Notes: a model not told the origin generated them from the letters alone. A stretch of 64,000 bases of DNA from an uncultured Gemmatimonadaceae bacterium (GCA_963716745.1 OY970320.1:3228297-3292296), one strand, 5' to 3'; counted from the stretch's first letter, positions 37,758 to 56,556 are shown. Made by a program: numbers and translations.

Positions 37758-38897
37758 GTGACCGCTTCGAACAGTAGAACCCGCGCGCGCGCCCGCGCCG
37801 CGGTGGTGGTCCTCTTCGCGGCACTCGCCGCCTGCGGAAAGAAAGGCGGTGCGTTCGCCTTTCCGCCCGCCGACGTGACGTTCGTCACAGTGCAACCCGG
37901 CGCCGTCGCCCAGCCCATCGAATTCAGCGGGCAGGTGGTGGCGTACCGCCGCGTGGAGGTGCGCTCGCGCGTGGACGGGATCATCGAATCGCGCGATTTC
38001 ACGGAAGGCGCGGTGGTCGAGCCCGGGCAGCTCCTGTACCAGATCGAACGCACGCGCTTCGACGCCGCGTATCGCAGCGCCAAGGCGCGCTTCGACAACG
38101 CGCAGCGCACGCTCGCGCGGCTCGAGCCGCTCCTCGCGCGTCACGCGGTGGCGCAGCAGGACGTGGACAACGCGCGCTCCGAGTTCGAGAGCGCGCAGGG
38201 CGCGATGGACCAGGCGAAGAAGGATCTCGACGACACGGAGATCCGCGCGAAGATCGCCGGCCGCGTGGGACGCACGCAGCTCGATGTCGGCGCGCGCGTC
38301 ACCGGTCCCGCCGATCTGCTTACGACGATCGACCGGCTCGATCCCGTGTACGTGACGTTCCGTCCGAGTTCGGACCAGCTCGTGGCATGGCAGCAGGATT
38401 CCGCCGCGCGCGCGATGCTGCGTGCCGGCAGCAAGCTCACGGTGCACGTGCTGCTCCCCGATGGCACCGAGTTGCCGCGCACGGGGCATCTCGATTTCGT
38501 CGCGCCGGCGCTCGACCCGGCCACGGGCACGCAGGAATTCCGCGCGCGGTTCGACAACGCCGATCGCGTGCTCCTGCCCGGTGAATTCGTGCGCGTGCGT
38601 CTCGAGGGACTCGTGCAGCGCGCTGCGATCGCCGTACCGCTGCGCGCGGTGCAGTCGGCGCTGGGCCGCCAATTCGTGTACGTCGTGGGCGCGGGCGACA
38701 CGGCGAGCATGCGCGACGTGAAGCCGGGGCCGTGGGCCGGCAATCTCTGGATCATCGACCAGGGGCTGCGGCCCGGCGATCGCGTGATCGTGGATGGCAT
38801 CCAGAAGGTGGCGCCCGGGCGCCCGGTGCATGCGACGGCGCTCACCGATTCCGCCGCGGTGCCGCACGCCGACACGATGCGCAAGGCGGGCTTGTGA
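37758..38897 (+). CDS. RND periplasmic adaptor lipoprotein (AcrA/MexA-like)
   Basis: LAACGKK lipobox, VEVRSRVDG, LLPGEFVRV, GLRPGDRVIVDG. Confidence 0.93.
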   Translation: MTASNSRTRARARAAVVVLFAALAACGKKGGAFAFPPADVTFVTVQPGAVAQPIEFSGQVVAYRRVEVRSRVDGIIESRDFTEGAVVEPGQLLYQIERTRFDAAYRSAKARFDNAQRTLARLEPLLARHAVAQQDVDNARSEFESAQGAMDQAKKDLDDTEIRAKIAGRVGRTQLDVGARVTGPADLLTTIDRLDPVYVTFRPSSDQLVAWQQDSAARAMLRAGSKLTVHVLLPDGTELPRTGHLDFVAPALDPATGTQEFRARFDNADRVLLPGEFVRVRLEGLVQRAAIAVPLRAVQSALGRQFVYVVGAGDTASMRDVKPGPWAGNLWIIDQGLRPGDRVIVDGIQKVAPGRPVHATALTDSAAVPHADTMRKAGL

Positions 38898-41800
38898 CCA
38901 CGCCGGCACCGAGCGGCGCCGGCGAGGGCGCGCCGGAGATCCGCTACTTCTTCATCCGGCGTCCCGTGCTCGCCGGCGTGCTCTCGATCATCATCACGCT
39001 GCTCGGCCTCTTCGCGATCCGGCTGCTGCCGATCTCGCGCTATCCGCAGATCACGCCGCCGGGCGTGCAGGTGAGTGCCGTGTACCCGGGCGCCACCGCG
39101 CAGGACGTGGCCGACGCCGTCGCCGCGCCGATCGAGCAGCAGCTGCCGGGTCTGCAAGGACTGATGTACTACTCGTCGGCGAACGCGAGCGACGGCACGA
39201 TGGGGCTGCAGATCACCTTCGATGTGACGCGCAGCCAGGATCTTGCCGCGGTGGACGTGCAGAACGCGGTGCAGGTGGCGGTGCCGCAGCTGCCCGATGC
39301 CGTGCGGCAGAACGGCGTCACGATCCTCAAGGCCAACACCGACATCCTGGCCGTCGCCGCGCTCACGTCGAGCGATGGGCGCTACGATGCGCCGTATCTC
39401 ACGAACTACCTCAAGCTCTACCTCGAGGACGAGCTCAAGCGCGTGCCCGGCATCGGCAACGCGCAGACGTTCCCGAGTCTGCAGTTCTCGATGCTGCTGC
39501 AGCTCGATCCGGCGCGCATGTCCAAGCTCCGCGTCACGGTGGGCGATGTCGCCTCGGCGGTGCGCGAACAGAACACGACGAATCCCGCGGGGCGGCTCGG
39601 GCGCGAGCCGGCGCCCGTCGGCACCGAGATGACGATCCCGATCACCGCGCAGGGGCGGCTGCAGACGCCCGCGCAGTTCGACGACATCGTCGTGCGCGCC
39701 AATCCCGATGGGTCGGAGGTGCGCGTGAGCGACGTGGGCCACGCGAAGCTCGGCGCGCTGTCGTACGATTTCGCCGCGCGTCTCAACGGGAAGCCCGCGG
39801 CGTTCGTGCTGCTCTTCATGCGGCCCGGCGCGAATGCGATCGCAGGTGCGCGACGCCGTGGAGAAGCGGCTCGCCGAGTTGAGCAAGGCGTTCCCGCCCG
39901 GCATCCACTACAGCATTCCCTTCGACACGACGCCCTTCGTCACGGCGAGCGTAAAGGAAGTGGTGTTCACGCTGCTCGAGGCGATGGCGCTCGTGGCGCT
40001 CGTGGTGTTCGTCTTCCTGCAGAGCTGGCGCGCGACGCTCATTCCGCTGCTCGCGGTGCCGGTGAGCGTCATCGGCACATTCCTCGGATTGTTCATCCTG
40101 GGGTTCTCGATCAACGTGCTGACGCTGTTCGCGCTCGTGCTCGCGATCGGCATCGTGGTGGATGACGCGATCGTCGTGATCGAGAACGTCGAACGCATCA
40201 TGGTCACCGAGCACGTATCGGCGCGCGTCGCGGCCGACCGCGCCATCCGTCAGGTGGCGGGCGCGCTGGTGGCGATCGTCCTCTCGCTCGTGGCGGTGTT
40301 CCTGCCGGTGGCGTTCACCGGCGGTGTGACGGGCGCGATGTTCAAGCAGTTCGCGATCACGATCGCGATCGCGGTGGTGCTCTCGGGGCTGGTGGCGCTC
40401 ACGCTCACGCCCGCGCTCTGCGCGCTGCTGCTCAAGGAGACGGTCGAGACGCATACGACTGGGCCGTTCGGCGCATTCAACCGCGGCTTCGCGCGCTTCT
40501 CCGAGCGCTACGCCGGCGCGGTGGACAGCGTGCTCGGCCGGCCGCGCGCCTGGCTCGCCGCCGTGGTGGTGATCATCGGGCTCGCGGCGATCCTGTGGCG
40601 CGTCGTGCCGAGCGCGTTCATCCCCACCGAGGACAAGGGCTACTTCGCGATCGCGGTGCAGCTGCCCGACGCGGCGTCGCTCCAGCGCACCACCGCCGTG
40701 GTGGAGCGCGTGGAAGGATTCCTGCGGCAGGATTCCGCCGTGCAGAATATCGTGGCGCTCGCCGGCTTCGACATCCTCAGCCGCGCGAGCCAGCCGAACA
40801 GCGCCACGATCTTCGTGAACGTGAAGAACTGGGACGAGCGCAACAAGCAGGAATCGGTCGACGCGATCACGGGGCGGCTGAACGGCAAGTTATTCGGAAT
40901 GAAGGAAGCCGTCGGCTTCTCGTTCAACCTGCCCGAGATCCCGGGGCTCGGCGCGTCGTCGGGCGTCGAGGCGAATCTGCAGAACATCGGCGGGCTCTCG
41001 GTGCAGGACTTCGCCACGCAGGTGCAAGCATTCTCCGCCGCGGCGAACCAGCTGCCGGCGGTGGCGGGCGTGAACGCGAACTTCCGCGCGAACGTGCCGC
41101 AACTGTACGTAGACGTGGACCGCGCGGCCGCCAAGGCGCGCGGCGTGGCGCTCGGCGACGTGTTCGGTACGCTGCAGGCGCTGATGTCCACGCTGTACGT
41201 GAACGATTTCAACTTGTACGGCAAGACGTACCGCGTGCAGATCGAAGCGCAGGCGCCGTACCGCCAGCGCCCGCAGGACCTCGACCAGCTCTACGTGCGC
41301 GGCAAGGATGATGTGATGCTGCCCATCTCGACGTTCATTCGCGCGGATTTCCGCAGCGGACCCACGCTGCATCACGCGCTTCAACGGATTCATGTCGGCG
41401 CTGGTGACCGGCGCGCCCAAGGAAGGACACAGTTCGGGCGAGATGATGAACGAGCTCGATGAACTCGTGCGCACGAAGTTCGCGCCCGTGGGACTCGCGG
41501 TGGCGTACTCGGGGCAGTCGTACCAGGAGCGCGCGTCGAGCGGTGCGGCGGGCACGGTGTTCGCGCTCGGCCTCGTGATCGTGTTCCTCGTGCTCGCGGC
41601 GCAATACGAGAGCTGGTCGCTGCCGTTCGCCGTGCTGCTCGGTGTTCCGTTCGGCGTACTCGGCGCGTTCCTGGGCATCTGGCTGCGCGGGCAGCCTAAT
41701 GACATTTACGTGCAAGTGGGACTGCTCACCGTGGTAGGGCTCGCGGCCAAGAACGCGATCCTCATCGTGGAGTTCGCCACCGAGCTGCGCGCGCAGGGAT

Positions 41801-42054
41801 TGTCGATCAGAGACGCAGCGCTCCAGTCGGCGCGCGAGCGGCTGCGTCCCATTCTCATGACGTCATTCGCGTTCATTTTGGGCGTGTCGCCGCTGCTGAT
41901 CGCAAGCGGCGCCGGCGCGGCGAGCCGTCACTCGATCGGCACCACCGTGTTCGCCGGTATGCTGATCGCGACATCGATCGGGATCTTCTTCATCCCGCTC
42001 TTCTTCTGGATGATCCGAAGCCTCGCGGAGCGGGGCAGTGCGGGGAGCGCATGA
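38894..42054 (+). CDS. HAE1 RND efflux permease; frameshifts near 39840 and 41370
   Basis: FFIRRPV, GIVVDDAIVVIENV, AAKNAILIVEF, RLRPILMTS. Confidence 0.92.
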
Positions 42055-43541
42055 GCGCGCGCGCCGTTGCGGCCGCGCTGATCGCGGCACTTTGCGCGTG
42101 CGCAGTGGGGCCGGACTACGAGCCGCAGCCCCCGGTGCCGCCGACCACGCAGGTTGGCACGCCGCGCGGGCCCGATTCGATCACGAAGTTCTACGATTCG
42201 CTGGCCGCCGCGCGTGCCATGGACTCATCGGTCACGGCACAGGTGCCCACGGCGCACACGGTGCTCGCGACGCAGATCGCGGATCTCGCGTGGCTCGACA
42301 TCCTGAACGACACGATCCTCGTGCGACTCGTCGAGACCGCCATACACCAGAACCGCGATCTCGCGGTGGCGCGGGCGCGCATTACCGAGTTCCGCGCCGA
42401 GGCGGGTGTCGCGGCGGCGCCGTTGTATCCGAACATCTCGATCAATGCGTCGGCGAGCACGAATCGCATCGCGCTGCCGAACCTGACGTACGAGGCGTAT
42501 CGCGCCACCGGCGATCTCGCCTGGGAGCTCGACTTCTGGGGGAAGACGCGGCGCGGCGTGCAGGCCGCGAAGGCCGATCTCGCCGCGCAGGATGAGTTCG
42601 CGCGCGCCGCGGTGCTCTCGCTCGTCAGCGACGTCGCGACCGCGTACCTCACGCTGCTCGAACTCGACCAGGAACGCGCGATCTCGGAGCAGACGCTCGC
42701 GACGCGCCGCGCAACGCTCGACCTTGCGCGCCAGCGCTATGAGAACGGCGTCACGAGTGAGATCGATGTGCGCGCCTTCGAGGCGCAGGTGGCCGTGCCG
42801 GCGGCGCGGCTCGCGCAGGTGCAGCAACTGCGCGCCCAGCAGGAACATCTGTTGAGCGTTCTGATGGGTGACGCGAACGCCGTGATCCCGCACGGCACGC
42901 TGCTTACGCTGGCCTCGCGCACGGTGATCATCCCGGATTCGCTCCCGTCCACGCTGCTGTCACGGCGCCCCGATGTGAAGGCGGCCGAGCGGCAGTATGC
43001 GGCCGCGATGGCGCGCATCGGCGTGGCGGACGCGGCGAGGTATCCGGCGTTCTCGATCGTGGCGTCGTACGGCCAGCAATCCACGACCGTGGGGCAGATC
43101 TTCGCACCCGGGAACAACGTGTACGTGCTGCAGGGCGGGCTGTCGTTCCCACTCTATACGGGTGGGCAGCTGAGCGAAGAGGTGCGCGCCGCGCGCGCGC
43201 GGGCGCAGCAGGCGCAGGCGGCGTACGAGCAAGTGTCGCTCACCGCATTGCAGGAAGCGGGCGACGCACTCGCCGGCGTCCGATCCGCGCGAGAGCAGGC
43301 CGCCGCGCAGGAGACGCAGACCGTGGCATTGCGCCGCGCGCTCGTGCTCGCGCAGGACCGGTACACGGGCGGCGTGTCCGGATTCCTCGAGGTGCTCGAG
43401 GCGCAACGCGGGCTATTCGATGCGGAGGTGGCGTTGAGCCAATCGCAGCTCGCGGAGATGGTCGCGGCAGTTCAGCTCTACAAAGCACTCGGCGGGAGCT
43501 GGGCGGACTCCCTAACCTCTACAGGCGTTCATAGGCCTTAG
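42051..43541 (+). CDS. Outer-membrane efflux factor lipoprotein (OprM/NodT-like)
   Basis: CAVGPDY, WELDFWG, LLSRRPDV.AAE, LYKALGGSW. Confidence 0.93.
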   Translation: MSARAVAAALIAALCACAVGPDYEPQPPVPPTTQVGTPRGPDSITKFYDSLAAARAMDSSVTAQVPTAHTVLATQIADLAWLDILNDTILVRLVETAIHQNRDLAVARARITEFRAEAGVAAAPLYPNISINASASTNRIALPNLTYEAYRATGDLAWELDFWGKTRRGVQAAKADLAAQDEFARAAVLSLVSDVATAYLTLLELDQERAISEQTLATRRATLDLARQRYENGVTSEIDVRAFEAQVAVPAARLAQVQQLRAQQEHLLSVLMGDANAVIPHGTLLTLASRTVIIPDSLPSTLLSRRPDVKAAERQYAAAMARIGVADAARYPAFSIVASYGQQSTTVGQIFAPGNNVYVLQGGLSFPLYTGGQLSEEVRAARARAQQAQAAYEQVSLTALQEAGDALAGVRSAREQAAAQETQTVALRRALVLAQDRYTGGVSGFLEVLEAQRGLFDAEVALSQSQLAEMVAAVQLYKALGGSWADSLTSTGVHRP

Positions 43542-47108: not shown

Positions 47109-47717
47109 ATGCGATTCTCGCTCACCACTCTCGTCCTCGCCGCGCCGCTCGCTTCGCTCGCGGCGCAGACCAGCCATCCCAAGTGGAGCTTCGATGCGAG
47201 CGTGTACGCGTACGCGCCGCCCGATGATCCCGATTACCTCCAGCCCACCGTCACCGCCGATCATGGCGGGCTGCATCTCGAAGGCCGCTACAACTACGAG
47301 GCGAAGAACACCGGCTCGCTGTGGGCGGGCGTGAATCTCGGCACCGGGCACACGGTGCGGCTCGACGTTACGGTGATGGGCGGCGTCGTGTTCGGCGACC
47401 TCGGCGGCATCGCGCCCGGCACGGAGATCACCCTCTCATGGGGGCCGCTCTCGCTCTACACCGAGGGCGAGTACGTCGTGGACCTCTCGAACTCATCCGG
47501 CGACTTCTTCTACAACTGGTCGCAGTTCACCTGGCAGGCGACGGGCGCGCTGCAACTCGGGCTCGTCGCGCAGCGCACGCGAGCATACCACCAGGACCGC
47601 GACATCGAGCGCGGCCTGTTCGTCGGCTACACGTGGCGGCGGAACACGCTCGCGGCCTACGTGTTCGATCCCGACAACCATCCCACCTGGGTCGTGTCGC
47701 TCGGTGCGGGCTTCTGA
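47109..47717 (+). CDS. Small outer-membrane beta-barrel protein
   Basis: Signal MRFSLTTLVLA..; amphipathic strands; terminal Phe. Confidence 0.7.
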   Translation: MRFSLTTLVLAAPLASLAAQTSHPKWSFDASVYAYAPPDDPDYLQPTVTADHGGLHLEGRYNYEAKNTGSLWAGVNLGTGHTVRLDVTVMGGVVFGDLGGIAPGTEITLSWGPLSLYTEGEYVVDLSNSSGDFFYNWSQFTWQATGALQLGLVAQRTRAYHQDRDIERGLFVGYTWRRNTLAAYVFDPDNHPTWVVSLGAGF

Positions 47718-47730
47718 AGCCCGCTGCCGG

Positions 47731-48235
47731 CTAATTCACTTTCTTCGACTTCGCGTCGTAGCCGGCGCGTGCGTTCCCCATGTTCCACTCGCTCTTCGCG
47801 TACACGAGTTCCACTTGGGTGGAGACGCCGCTGGGACCGCCCACCAAATGCACCGACGCCACGCGGACATCGCTGAGCTTGATCGACCCTGCTGTCCCGA
47901 GCATGAGCGTGGCATCGGGGAAGGCGCGCCCGCTCTGAGCGGCGGCCGCGAGCAGCGATGCGGTCTGATCGAGCGCGATCGCGTAGTGGAGACTCGAGAA
48001 CTGGGCCCGCCCTGAGCCCGCGCCGCCGGTGGCGCTTCCGATAGTCGCGGAGCTGCTCACCCCAACATTCGAACGACTCCACCGCGCTCGGCGCGACGGT
48101 GCCGCTCTGGATGCCATTGATGCTGATCGTCGCATTCGCGGCAAGCATCGGCGCGCTCGCGGAGTGGTCAGCGGCCCAACCGCCGAGTGAAAGTACGATG
48201 CCGACGAGCGCTGCGACCCCGAATGAACGGCGCAT
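47731..48235 (-). CDS. Hcp/tail-tube-like protein with an N-terminal signal peptide; one frameshift near 48066
   Basis: RBS GGAGG; VESFE.GVSS..GGAGSGRAQFSSL...LDQTASLL..AAQSGRAFP.ATL...IKLSDVRVASV...VELVYAKSEW...GYD resembles the Hcp consensus. Confidence 0.65.
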
Positions 48236-48391
48236 GGTTCCCTCCTGGTGAGAGTGCCCTTCGTGCGCAATTGTAGCGGCGGGTCTTGTGCCCCGCCATT
48301 CGTTGCCCGGGGGCAGGGCAAGCCGTCGTTCCCGTGAGCCGCGCCAGCACGTGCAGGCGCCGGAACGCCCACCCGGTCTCGGGGTCGATCC

Positions 48392-49975
48392 ATGATGAGA
48401 TTCTCGTGTTTACTCGCCGCCTTCGTGGGCGCAATGCTCGCCGCCGGCTGCAACAGCTCCACGGCCAGTTCGGGCCCGCCCGCCGCGATCACCAAAGTGA
48501 GCGGCGACGACCAGAGCGGCATCGTGTCGACCGCGCTCAGCCAACCGTTCGTCATCAAGGTCGCCGACACCGCCGGCGTCGGCGTGCCGAACGTCGCGGT
48601 CGTCTGGACGCTCACGCTCGGATCGGGCACGCTCACGGTGGCGAAAGCCAAGACCGACGTGAACGGCAAGGCGGAGGCATCGCTCACGCTGGGCGCCGGC
48701 GCTGGCACGCGTCTCGCGACGGTCGTGGTTTCCGCGATCACGAAGGGAACGAACAGCGCGACCTTCGACGCGATCGCGGCCGCACCGGCGACGCGCGATG
48801 ACTGGATCACGTACGGCCACGACGGGCATCGCACGTCCGCGTCGCAAGCGAGCCTCAAGTCGCCGCTCACTACTGCGTGGCGATTCGCGCCGCCGTCGCC
48901 GGTGACGAATCCGTATACGGTGGTGTTCGACGCGCTCGCCGCGGCCGACGGCGTCTATCTCCAATGGGGATCCACCGGCACGTTCTTCGGATTCGGCACC
49001 GGCACGAATGTCGATCGCATCTCACCCGCCGGCGCGCGCGTGTGGAGCAACACGGCGTGGGGCGCCGATTACAACATCGGCCACTGGGGCTCGATCTACG
49101 GCAACAAGTTCGTCTTCATGGATGACGGACTCGGCTATCTCAACCTGAGCAATGGCACGCGTGCGTTCAACACGAGCGTTGACTGGTGGGGCGAGACGCT
49201 GCCCGACGCCACGGGATTGTATCTGTCGCAGAATTGGCACGTGGATGGACCGCAAACATTCGTGGGTTCGCTCTCGGCGACGGGTACGTCGCGCTGGAAG
49301 ACGAATCTCTATGGCGCGACGAAGGCCGACATTGGCGTGTGGGATCCGTCGGGCGGGCTCGCGCTGAATAACGGCGTGCTCTTCTTCGATCCGGTATATC
49401 AGGGCTCGATCACGGTGCCGAACCCCAAAGGCGTGTTCGCCTTCACCGCGAGCAGCGGCGCGCTGGTGAAGTTCGTCGCGACCACGCCGAACTCGCACAT
49501 CAGCGCCGACTCGGCGAAGGTGTATCTCGTCGAGACCGGGGGCACGATCCTCGTCGCGCGCGCGCAGAACGATCTGCACGTCGTATGGTCGGTGACCATC
49601 CCGTACGCCGGGCCGCAAGCGCCGCTGCTCGCGAACGGACTCGTGATCATCGGCACGTACAGCGACGTCGAAGCGTTCAGTGCGGCGACTGGCGTGCGAG
49701 TCTGGAAGACCACCGTGGCGGGGCTCACGACGTATTCACAAGGTTCCACCACGACGTACCTCGCTGCCGCGCTCGGCAGCGGCACGCTCATCGCCACCGC
49801 GTCGAACGGCATCCACGTGCTGTCCCTGCTCACGGGCGCGGATCTCTGGCACGGCACGGCGACGGGTGCGTCGGGCACGCCGCACGATCCCGTCATCGTG
49901 AACGATCCGGTGAACGGTCCCGTGCTGTACGTGGTGGACAACGCGGGGGTCATCGCGCTCAAGGGCTCGCCGTAA
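48392..49975 (+). CDS. Lipoprotein with an Ig-like (Big_1) domain and a PQQ-like beta-propeller
   Basis: LAAGC lipobox; VSGDDQSG, TDVNGKA; DWITYGHDGHRT; AFSAATGVRVWK. Confidence 0.8.
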   Translation: MMRFSCLLAAFVGAMLAAGCNSSTASSGPPAAITKVSGDDQSGIVSTALSQPFVIKVADTAGVGVPNVAVVWTLTLGSGTLTVAKAKTDVNGKAEASLTLGAGAGTRLATVVVSAITKGTNSATFDAIAAAPATRDDWITYGHDGHRTSASQASLKSPLTTAWRFAPPSPVTNPYTVVFDALAAADGVYLQWGSTGTFFGFGTGTNVDRISPAGARVWSNTAWGADYNIGHWGSIYGNKFVFMDDGLGYLNLSNGTRAFNTSVDWWGETLPDATGLYLSQNWHVDGPQTFVGSLSATGTSRWKTNLYGATKADIGVWDPSGGLALNNGVLFFDPVYQGSITVPNPKGVFAFTASSGALVKFVATTPNSHISADSAKVYLVETGGTILVARAQNDLHVVWSVTIPYAGPQAPLLANGLVIIGTYSDVEAFSAATGVRVWKTTVAGLTTYSQGSTTTYLAAALGSGTLIATASNGIHVLSLLTGADLWHGTATGASGTPHDPVIVNDPVNGPVLYVVDNAGVIALKGSP

Positions 49976-54271: not shown

Positions 54272-56556
54272 ATGCATTCGTCTCTCGCCATCACTCCTGC
54301 TCGCGCTCAGCGGGCTCGCGCTCATTCCGTCGCGCGCCCGCGCCCGAACCGCTCCCGCTCCGCGGCTTCACCGCCGCCTCGGGCAAGACGGAGCGCGACT
54401 GGGAAGCCAAGTTCATGGCGATCCCGGATCCCGCGAAGATGCGCGCGAACATGGAACTCCTCGCCGCGCATCCCCATCACGTGGGTTCGCCATACGACAA
54501 GCAGAACGCCGAGTGGATCCTCGCGCAGTACAAGTCCTACGGCTGGGACGCGCACATCGAGATCGTTCGACGTGCTCTTCCCGACGCCGCTCGAGCGCCT
54601 CGTGGAGATGACGGGGCCGGTGAAGTACACGGCGAAACTGCAGGAGCCCGTCGTGCCGCAGGATCCGACCACGGCGCAGACGAAAGAGCAGCTGCCCACG
54701 TACAACGCGTACTCGATCGACGGCGACGTCACCGGGCCGCTCGTGTTCGTGAACTACGGCGTGCCGGCCGACTACGACGAGCTCGCGCGGCGCGGCATCT
54801 CGGTGAAGGGCGCGATCGTGATCGCGAAGTACGGCGGCTCGTGGCGCGGCATCAAGCCGAAGGTCGCCGCCGAGCACGGTGCGATCGGATGCCTCATCTA
54901 TTCCGATCCGGGCGACGACGGCTACGCCGGCGGCGCGGTGTTCCCGGCGGGTCCGATGCGTCCGAGCCAGGGCGTGCAGCGCGGCAGTGTCGCCGACATG
55001 CCGACGTACGCCGGCGATCCGCTCACGCCCGGCGTCGGCGCGACGAAGGATGCGAAGCGCCTCGCGCTCAAGGATGTCACAACGCTCACGAAGATCCCCG
55101 TGCTGCCGATCTCCTACGGCGATGCGCAGCCGATGCTCGAAGCGATGGGCGGCCCCGTGGCGCCCGTGACGTGGCGCGGCGGACTGCCCATCACGTATCG
55201 GCTCGGCTCGGGCCCCGCGATGGTGCATCTCAAGGTGAAGTTCGACTGGAGCCTCAAGCCGCTGTACGACGTGATCGCGAAGCTGCCCGGCAGCTCCGAA
55301 GCGGATCAGTGGGTGATCCGCGGCAATCATCACGACGGCTGGGTGAACGGCGCCGAGGATCCGATCTCGGGGCAGGTGGCCGAGCTCGAGGAAGCGCGCG
55401 CGATGGGCGATTCTGTACAAGCAGGGATGGCGCCCCAAGCGCACGATCATCTACGCGGCGTGGGATGGCGAAGAGCCGGGATTGCTCGGTTCCACCGAGT
55501 GGGTGGAGACGCACGCGGATGAACTGAAGGCGCATGCGGCCGTGTACATCAACACCGATACCAACGATCGCGGGTATTTCTTCGCGGGCGGCTCGCACAC
55601 GCTCGAGGGTTTCGTGAACGGCGTCGAGCGCGACGTGTGGGACCCCGAGTCGAAAGTCTCGGTGTTCGAGCGCAACAAGGCGTTGGCCGCGGTGAGTGCG
55701 ATCGACGGCGATGCCGGCGAGGATGCCGACGCGGTCGAGAGCGCGACCGCGGACCTGCACATCGCCGCACTCGGGTCGGGTTCCGATTTCACGCCGTTCT
55801 TGCAGCATCTTGGCGTGGCGTCGCTCAATGTGGGCTACGGTGGCGAGGACGATGGCGGCATCTACCACTCGATCTACGACGACTTCTACTGGTACACGCA
55901 TTTCAGCGACACGTCGTTCGTCTACGGCAAGTCGATGTCGCAGACCGTGGGCATCGCGATGATGCGGCTGGCCGATGCGGATGTGCTGCCCTTCGGCTTC
56001 AATACGCTGAGTGCCACGGCGCGTCGCTATACGAAACAGCTCCAGGCGCTGCGCGGCACGCGCGCGGCGAAGATCGCGGAGCGGAATCAAGCGATCGCGA
56101 GCGGCTACTACGCGATGACGAACGATCCGCGCGATCCGTCCAGCGCGCCGCCGGTGCAGGTGCGCTCCGCCTGAGTTCAATTTCTCGCCACTGCTGAACG
56201 CGCTCGATACGCTCGACCGCGCGGCGTCGCGCTATGAGGCGGCGTACGCGAAGTGGAACGGCGGCTCGAGCGCCGATGCGGCGACGCTGACGGCAGTGAA
56301 CGCGCAGCTCATTCAAGCGGAGCGCGCAATGACGTCGAGCGACGGTTTGCCGCGGCGGCCGTGGTTCCAGCATTTGTTGTACGCGCCGGGCTACTACACG
56401 GGATACGGCGTGAAGACGATGCCGGGCGCGCGCGAAGCGATGGATCAGGGGCAGTGGAGCGATGTGGACGCGCAGATCGTGCGCATCGCGGCGGCGCTGC
56501 GCGCGGAGGCGGCGCTGGTGAACAAGGTGGCCGCGACGCTCGAAGGGGCGAAGTGA
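54272..56556 (+). CDS. M28B peptidase (glutamate carboxypeptidase II / TfR-like); several frameshifts
   Basis: PA domain; GNHHDGW, GAEDP, WDGEE.GLLGS, YINTD, GSDF, YHS; RRPWFQHLLYAPG. Confidence 0.9.

Follow-up and report, generated by a model that had tools for sequence, protein, structure and literature searches.

Hcp (TssD) is treated as a hallmark of the T6SS and as a read-out of secretion, and the label given to a lone hcp gene is "T6SS effector" or tube protein. The canonical inner-tube protein, as in Hcp1 of P. aeruginosa (1y12) and A. baumannii (4w64), has no leader, is assembled in the cytoplasm, and starts 1-5 residues before its first strand, and within the T6SS Hcp has a lumen-binding, chaperone-like role. 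Some hcp genes stand alone, as orphans or in hcp-vgrG islands away from the T6SS cluster. In T6SS-bearing bacteria these orphan Hcps have no leader and work for a T6SS whose genes are at another place in the genome. The Hcp domain is also reused with added parts in specialised ("evolved") Hcps with C-terminal toxin extensions (Hcp-ET), which are T6SS substrates. In the available part of one paper Hcp1 is mentioned only as a T6SS toxin carrier (PMC3482391), and the accessible text of another reports T6SS_HCP-domain proteins among the extracellular proteins of a granular sludge community (10.1101/2024.11.06.622250). Hcp domains apparently also occur on PEP-CTERM proteins, which need Sec export. 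According to the accessible sections of Howard et al. (2021), Hcp genes with PF07589 (PEP-CTERM) were left out of the tree and unstudied (PMC8262886), suggesting exported Hcp-domain proteins have been met before and set aside. A full-text literature search returned no paper on signal-peptide-bearing Hcps, and a leader-bearing, T6SS-independent Hcp is undescribed in the searchable literature.

Here we analyze an Hcp-like gene in the last 64 kb (64,000 bases; the window) of the genome of a soil Gemmatimonadaceae bacterium. Like Hcp1, its product passes the PF05638 profile and shares the beta-barrel-plus-helix fold. Also retained are the Gly-rich extended loop (GSATGGAGSGRAQF) and, at the C-terminus, the ...YDAKSKKVN tail, and an intact homologue is predicted to have a head-to-tail lateral interface. 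Unlike Hcp1, the product has a conserved Sec-type leader followed by a 12-residue linker, falls short of the TssD model TIGR03344, and is encoded in a genome in which TssB/C, VgrG, PAAR, TssE/F/K, and a phage sheath were not found. Within the phylum the leader-bearing type was found only in genomes without TssC. The gene resembles the orphan hcps in standing alone but differs in its export signal and in a genome with no detected T6SS. In contrast to the Hcp-ETs, its product begins with an export signal and has nothing appended at the C-terminus, and unlike the PEP-CTERM proteins it ends with the Hcp domain, with no PEP-CTERM or other Pfam domain. We read the locus as encoding a Sec-exported Hcp ring protein independent of the T6SS, with a one-base break that is most likely an assembly error, and give this reading as a whole a probability of about 0.7. 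That the gene encodes a real exported protein of the Hcp family is, taken by itself, very probable.

A stand-alone Hcp-like gene read in two frames

The genome (G000) is a single contig of 3,292,296 bases with an estimated completeness of 89.8%. The gene lies on the minus strand, from an ATG at 48235 to a TAG stop codon at 47733-47731, 13 bases from the stop of a convergent gene (47109-47717, plus strand). A Shine-Dalgarno-like AGGAGG (48241-48246, minus strand) is found 5 bases 5' of the ATG, the upstream sequence reading ...CACCAGGAGGGAACC ATG. From that ATG, frame A reads MRRSFGVAALVGIVLSLGGWAADHSASAP...AVESFE (in full MRRSFGVAALVGIVLSLGGWAADHSASAPMLAANATISINGIQSGTVAPSAVESFE) and past 48068 is out of register, continuing as an Arg-rich nonsense tail. 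Its first 22 residues (MRRS / FGVAALVGIVLSL / GGWA; 48170-48235, minus strand) are a predicted Sec signal peptide with a predicted signal peptidase I cut after A22. The rest (48068-48169, minus strand) would be the mature N-terminus, an Ala/Ser/Pro-rich linker and the first Hcp strands (ATISINGIQSGTVAPSAVESFE). Frame B, VGVSSS...AKSKKVN (48066-47734, minus strand), opens with VGVSSSATIGSATGGAGSGRAQF, closes with VELVYAKSEWNMGNARAGYDAKSKKVN, and supplies the remainder of the Hcp domain in 111 residues, with a PF05638 match spanning 47782-48066.

Between the two frames exactly one base (48067) is left over, the stretch 48067-48235 being 169 bases, or 56 codons plus one. At the break (48067-48069) the gene strand reads GAA-T-GTT; intact relatives have one codon there, Asp, before the Val. 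Aligned with P0004, an intact homologue (alignment A1), the two halves abut with no gap or overlap (ESFE / VGVSSS against ESFD VGVSGS). The first-pass annotation had proposed that removing one base near 48066 joins both halves, and a skip anywhere at 48066-48069 indeed suffices given the single spare base. So joined, the locus would be a single gene for a 167-residue preprotein with a Sec-type signal peptide, a short Ala/Ser/Pro linker, and a complete Hcp domain. It would stand alone with its own ribosome-binding site between convergent and divergent neighbors.

Those neighbors are a convergent outer-membrane-barrel-like gene, a BNR/sortilin-repeat protein, a divergent Big_1 and PQQ-propeller lipoprotein, and a Ser/Thr kinase. 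The locus is syntenic within the genus. No neighbor conserved across genera was found, and none pointed to a functional partner: an amidohydrolase is encoded beside the gene in G081, a DUF4139 protein in G501 and G411, and a cupin in G449. The 202-residue product of the convergent neighbor (47109-47717) begins with a signal peptide (MRFSLTTLVLAAPLASLAAQ) and ends in ...SLGAGF, a C-terminus typical of outer-membrane beta-barrels; it had no Pfam match, and the gene is conserved beside the Hcp-like gene in the congener. In genus g157 the leader-bearing Hcp-like gene is directly 3' of a gene for a secreted DUF4139 protein of 505-533 residues (L057:4932-6449 in G501; L058:7334-8935 in G411), a pairing absent from the other genera compared.

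The one-base break

Contigs from four soil-metagenome runs (Logan) were aligned to positions 47300-48700; the break was covered by one contig, from run X3, and the whole gene by none. The X3 contig (219 bases, 47945-48164, at a low depth of 3.6) is 98-99% identical to the window; with three other letters, it stems from a population that is related but not the same. It has one base missing at 48068 and an A>G at 48064, and when read on the gene strand it continues in frame with Asp-Val, as in P0004. The related population reads both halves continuously, in agreement with the earlier claim that they are one frame. Related contigs differ from the window inside the gene at 47770, 47773, 47893, 48064, and 48101. 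All five differences are synonymous third-position changes, one in frame A (48101) and four in frame B, and so purifying selection acts on both halves in the proposed frames.

An AcrB/RND pump gene about 7 kb away (38732-42054, plus strand) is also split, being spread over three overlapping frames, as would suit an assembly rich in indels. Its pieces at 38732-40165, 39834-41462, and 41392-42054, all on the plus strand, match Pfam profile positions 3-311, 294-803, and 814-1020, and the gene is flanked by a membrane-fusion gene (37758-38897) and an outer-membrane factor gene (42051-43541). Because the X3 contig is without the surplus base and the nearby AcrB gene is split as well, the break is probably due to a base wrongly inserted in the assembly and not to pseudogene formation.

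A true pseudogene, in which this strain would have lost a dispensable exported Hcp-like protein through a genuine insertion of one base while the gene stayed intact in related populations, is less probable but is the alternative we take most seriously. As it stands in the assembly, the gene is out of frame, and the surplus base falls within a two-base run with no long homopolymer. The gene is also patchy in the genus. An orthologue was found in one of the four congeners searched (G041), the genomes being 76-89% complete, and on this count the gene is dispensable. On the other side, a contig 98-99% identical reads through the same site, the differences in both halves are exclusively synonymous, and the AcrB gene nearby is broken twice. 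Same-strand frame-switching neighbors per high-GC3 frame are also more frequent here (0.132) than in samples of two complete relatives (0.074 and 0.017), a crude, GC-confounded, and weak comparison. We accordingly prefer an assembly error.

The exact abutment of the two frames is the one feature in favor of a programmed +1 ribosomal frameshift regulating the protein. At this site every intact homologue, like the related contig, reads in a single frame, and as these relatives are without the shift there can be no conserved slippery or stimulatory element. We rejected this explanation and give it practically no credence.

Elsewhere in the window, the gene for a PA-domain protein (54272-55522, plus strand) is followed, in another frame and with a 40-base overlap, by an open frame at 55482-56174 (plus strand). 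The latter starts like the middle of a peptidase (LLGSTEWVETHADELKAH...) and had no Pfam match; it may be a further frame break.

Membership in the Hcp family

The first-pass annotation had described the body of the protein as Hcp-like. The frame-B half alone matches PF05638 (T6SS_HCP) with 32.1 bits, above the cut-off of 23.5, over profile positions 27-128 of 129. The missing positions 1-26 correspond to the frame-A part. In a genome-wide PF05638 scan the locus scored 30.5 bits. Four intact homologues were compared: P0004, a metagenome protein of 167 residues with 77% identity to the window protein; P0006, the orthologue from the congener G041, with 50% identity and no internal stop; and two further homologues with a leader, P0008 and P0010. 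They score 41.7-50.4 bits against PF05638, with P0004 at 41.7. No DNA relative of P0004 was found in the metagenome contigs, and a search of genome contigs with P0006 returned only the congener G041. No Pfam family besides PF05638, PEP-CTERM PF07589 included, was found on the window half or on the four homologues.

The curated TssD model of NCBIfam (TIGR03344, cut-off 58.9 bits) gives a different picture. The window half, P0004, and P0008 have no match to it, and P0006 (23.4 bits) and P0010 (16.6 bits) stay below the cut-off, so the subfamily is a divergent Hcp.

Given the broken window copy, the fold was modeled on P0004. The AlphaFold2 model (82-row alignment) has a pLDDT of 85.7 and a pTM of 0.74, with residues 1-20 disordered and a core at 35-160. 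In a Foldseek search of the PDB the top matches were the Hcp1 structures 4w64 (E 5.8e-10), 5xhh, and 1y12, with E-values from 6e-10 to 2e-9, a TM of about 0.7, and a probability of 1.00. Sixty-five PDB chains matched at E <= 0.001, and all among those listed are Hcp proteins or Hcp1 fusions. In the ESM Atlas, every cluster returned carried the name Hcp. The model thus has the Hcp fold, a beta-barrel with one helix, that the first-pass annotation had supposed. In family and fold the window protein is an Hcp; by the features that define function, it is not a TssD.

A second PF05638 gene is present in the genome outside the window (C1:1058756-1059658; L001:1444-2346, plus strand), so the window Hcp is not the only one. 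It codes for 300 residues, with a PF05638 match of 94.8 bits at residues 20-144 (1058813-1059187 in the genome scan, 96.8 bits). Its hydrophobic N-terminus (MIPFRAIFVAALYLLKTGS before FLQLPGITGES) is kept in three congeners. After the Hcp domain there is a Pro/Ala-rich linker and then a domain of about 110 residues with no Pfam match; this paralogue thus has a C-terminal extension of the kind seen in the Hcp-ETs. With a conserved hydrophobic N-terminus on each, both Hcp genes of this T6SS-less genome look exported.

The leader and the predicted route of export

The leader has a basic n-region of four residues (MRRS), the hydrophobic core FGVAALVGIVLSL, a GG turn, and G-W-A before the predicted cut, followed by A. 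The best 13-residue Kyte-Doolittle mean in the core is 2.56. Small residues at -3 and -1 are the pattern of a cleaved signal (the von Heijne -3/-1 rule), and with no Cys in the leader there is no lipobox. By von Heijne's criteria this is the pattern of a Sec/signal peptidase I preprotein, with a basic n-region, a core of 10-15 residues, and small residues at -3 and -1, and it is conserved in the four homologues. The 13-residue core, G-W-A, and the upstream AGGAGG support the Sec-type signal peptide of the first-pass annotation, which is retained as a prediction. The signal is kept in P0004 (MRRSFGVATLAIIALSLGGWAADH), P0006 (MKRLLGIAASAAVVLGLTGWAADR), P0008, and P0010, as it should be if the first-pass proposal were right. 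The congener G041 has TGGAGGG where the window has AGGAGG. Judged from these sequences, the protein would be exported and cut after A22.

We considered three other readings of the N-terminus. The hydrophobic segment could be an uncleaved signal anchor, which would hold the Hcp domain on the outer side of the inner membrane, with no soluble ring released. Some distant relatives (e.g. P0022 and P0025) do have long hydrophobic segments with no obvious Ala-x-Ala. In this subfamily, however, the core is short (13 residues) and followed by a helix-breaking GG, G-W-A stands at -3 to -1, and GWAAD is conserved in the window protein, P0004, and P0006. An anchor is therefore improbable, and we retain a cleaved Sec signal.

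Were the protein a Tat substrate, folding and perhaps ring formation would take place in the cytoplasm, before its passage through the membrane in the folded state. A Tat signal has an S/T-R-R-x-F-L-K motif, a long n-region, and a weakly hydrophobic core. The window protein and P0004 start M-R-R-S-F-G, resembling the Tat core R-R-x-F-L. That RRSF is confined to these two, the pair being K-R in P0006 and P0008 and K-T in P0010, and the change of RR to KR or KT in orthologues makes a Tat signal unlikely. The four-residue n-region and the strongly hydrophobic core (2.56) are typical of Sec and atypical of Tat. Tat export was rejected on the twin-arginine motif, the n-region length, and the core hydropathy, and we hold it very improbable.

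Translation from the internal Met30 would instead yield an ordinary cytoplasmic tube protein for a T6SS encoded in an unassembled part of the genome or acting in trans. In the window protein this Met is five residues before the first strand (MLAANATISING), and the completeness estimate of 89.8% leaves some room for missing genes. Yet Met30 is missing from P0004, P0006, and P0008, and the leader stays open and hydrophobic with AGGAGG upstream. Neither the one-contig genome, in which none of eight T6SS and tail families matched, nor the seven other leader-bearing genomes, all of them missing TssC, fit such a protein. With Met30 unconserved, the leader conserved, and a ribosome-binding site at ATG 48235, we rejected this reading as scarcely credible.

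No T6SS genes found in the genome and no TssC found with leader-bearing Hcps in the phylum

The first-pass annotation reported no vgrG, PAAR, sheath, or baseplate genes in the window, and none was found in the whole 3,292,296-base genome either. None of eight Pfam families of T6SS and contractile-tail genes matched: TssC (PF05943), TssB (PF05591), VgrG (PF05954), TssF (PF05947), TssK (PF05936), PAAR (PF05488), gp25/TssE (PF04965), and the phage sheath (PF04984), the last two serving also as marks of an eCIS or phage contractile tail. The E. coli control was matched each time. The genome check that had been suggested thus found no T6SS or eCIS genes, though with a completeness estimate of 89.8% the absence is not absolute even for a single contig.

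To place the gene in its phylum, a subfamily profile (A3) was searched against 401 genomes and matched 37 at E <= 1e-5. N-termini were read for 30 loci from the profile search together with loci from the family search; seven further matching genomes had no locus and are unclassified. Besides G000, seven genomes from five genera and three families have a leader-bearing Hcp-like gene (G041, G081, G007, G449, G501, G411, and G262). Leaderless Hcps of the MAFDAFLKIDG type, which start 1-5 residues before the first strand, are encoded in 23 genomes from 12 genera. TssC (PF05943) was found in all 23 of the latter, usually within about 1 kb of hcp, and in none of the seven leader-bearing genomes. The count is 0 of 8 with G000 included, and leaving out the unpublished G007 makes it 0 of 6, or 0 of 7 with G000. 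Leader-bearing Hcps and TssC are anticorrelated in the phylum; as the genomes are related and the counts not independent, 23 of 23 against 0 of 7 is a pattern and not a statistic.

Predicted self-association and a possible role

The first-pass annotation went further and proposed an exported ring or filament. The support for a ring is a predicted self-association of P0004. Four copies of mature P0004 (residues 23-167) gave an ipSAE of 0.69 (runs 0.73, 0.69, and 0.67), against 0.01 for the best control; at least 82% of contacts were shared between runs, and the partner pLDDT was at least 73. In the predicted interface, a face made of residues 88-102 and 124-144 meets residues 34-35, 52-64, 112-118, and 150-159 of the next copy, giving a head-to-tail arc. 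The mark used for self-association was reached by 20 of 30 solved homomers and 1 of 23 solved single chains, a calibration made with two copies, not four, and with own alignments. Because Hcp hexamers have already been solved, the result for P0004 may reflect likeness to them. On balance, we hold it somewhat more likely than not that the protein forms rings.

A possible course of events is as follows. SecYEG would export the unfolded chain, signal peptidase I would cut after GWA22, and the mature domain of about 14 kDa would fold in the periplasm. Mature copies would then join head to tail into Hcp-type rings with no contractile sheath, spike, or baseplate. Such a ring would serve as a cargo-binding or structural element of the cell envelope or exterior. 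By analogy with the part that Hcp plays in the T6SS this would be its likeliest role, but we have low confidence in any specific one. In a bolder and doubtful version, periplasmic Hcp-like rings of T6SS-less bacteria would recapture the incoming, Hcp-carried effectors of attackers, a defense by sequestration. With a tube-protein gene behind an export signal in a T6SS-less bacterium, a further use of the Hcp fold in the cell envelope is probable. The small size, solubility, and easy expression of these proteins make the function of a sheath-less Hcp ring directly testable.

Leader-bearing Hcps in the wider family and tandem Hcp proteins

A phmmer search of 1.84 billion representatives with P0004 gave 111 hits at E <= 0.001. 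The Hcp-domain profile matched 111 of the 112 proteins scanned (110 hits plus P0004, which is counted among the single-domain rows). We called a protein leader-bearing when its N-terminus was extended by at least 12 residues and these included a hydrophobic core, a heuristic of our own. By this measure, the 83 single-domain hits divide into 51 leader-bearing, 23 leaderless (some of them fragments), and 9 unclear. The query has a leader and may favor leader-bearing hits, yet most best matches start at query residue 38-52, inside the domain. All 58 leader-bearing hits scanned (51 single-domain and 7 with two or three domains) pass the PF05638 cut-off. In many relatives the signal directly precedes the canonical first strand, e.g. 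...AFA / AVDYFLKLDG.

A tree of 124 Hcp domains was built by a quick method with no mixture model; sequences from G007 and G134, both unpublished, are part of it. Sixteen changes account for the leader state, where the ten listed of 200 label shuffles require 35-43. Leaders cluster on this tree but are not one clade, and the leader-bearing genes of the Gemmatimonadota fall in three places.

Taken together, leader-bearing Hcps might be widespread, T6SS-independent, exported ring or tube modules of lineages that lack a T6SS or are unable to build one, with six-domain chains as a covalently closed form of the ring. We offer this broader reading tentatively and consider it rather doubtful as it stands. 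If true, the tube fold of contractile tails has a second life in the envelope or outside the cell, where a ring-forming fold would have an unstudied role. With many export-signal Hcps encoded in T6SS-less genomes and anticorrelated with the sheath gene, the usual annotation of a lone hcp would mislead.

The six-domain chains come from the same search. Twelve relatives of 927-2164 residues have six tandem PF05638 domains (P0007, P0009, P0011-P0016, P0019, P0027, P0037, and P0040), and P0038 and P0064 have five. Six is the subunit number of the Hcp ring. The AlphaFold2 model of P0009 has a pLDDT of 77.6 and a pTM of 0.77 over 1068 residues, values suggesting its six domains hold a fixed arrangement, and the protein probably forms a closed single-chain ring. 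Such a natural single-chain ring would be of interest to protein engineering. The literature search found no paper on tandem Hcp proteins. Several of them begin with the planctomycete motif RRLxxExLExRxLLA; P0012 scores 23.1 bits against PF07595, below the cut-off of 25.5. Other tandem Hcp proteins add Big_13, PKD, or SdrD_B domains.
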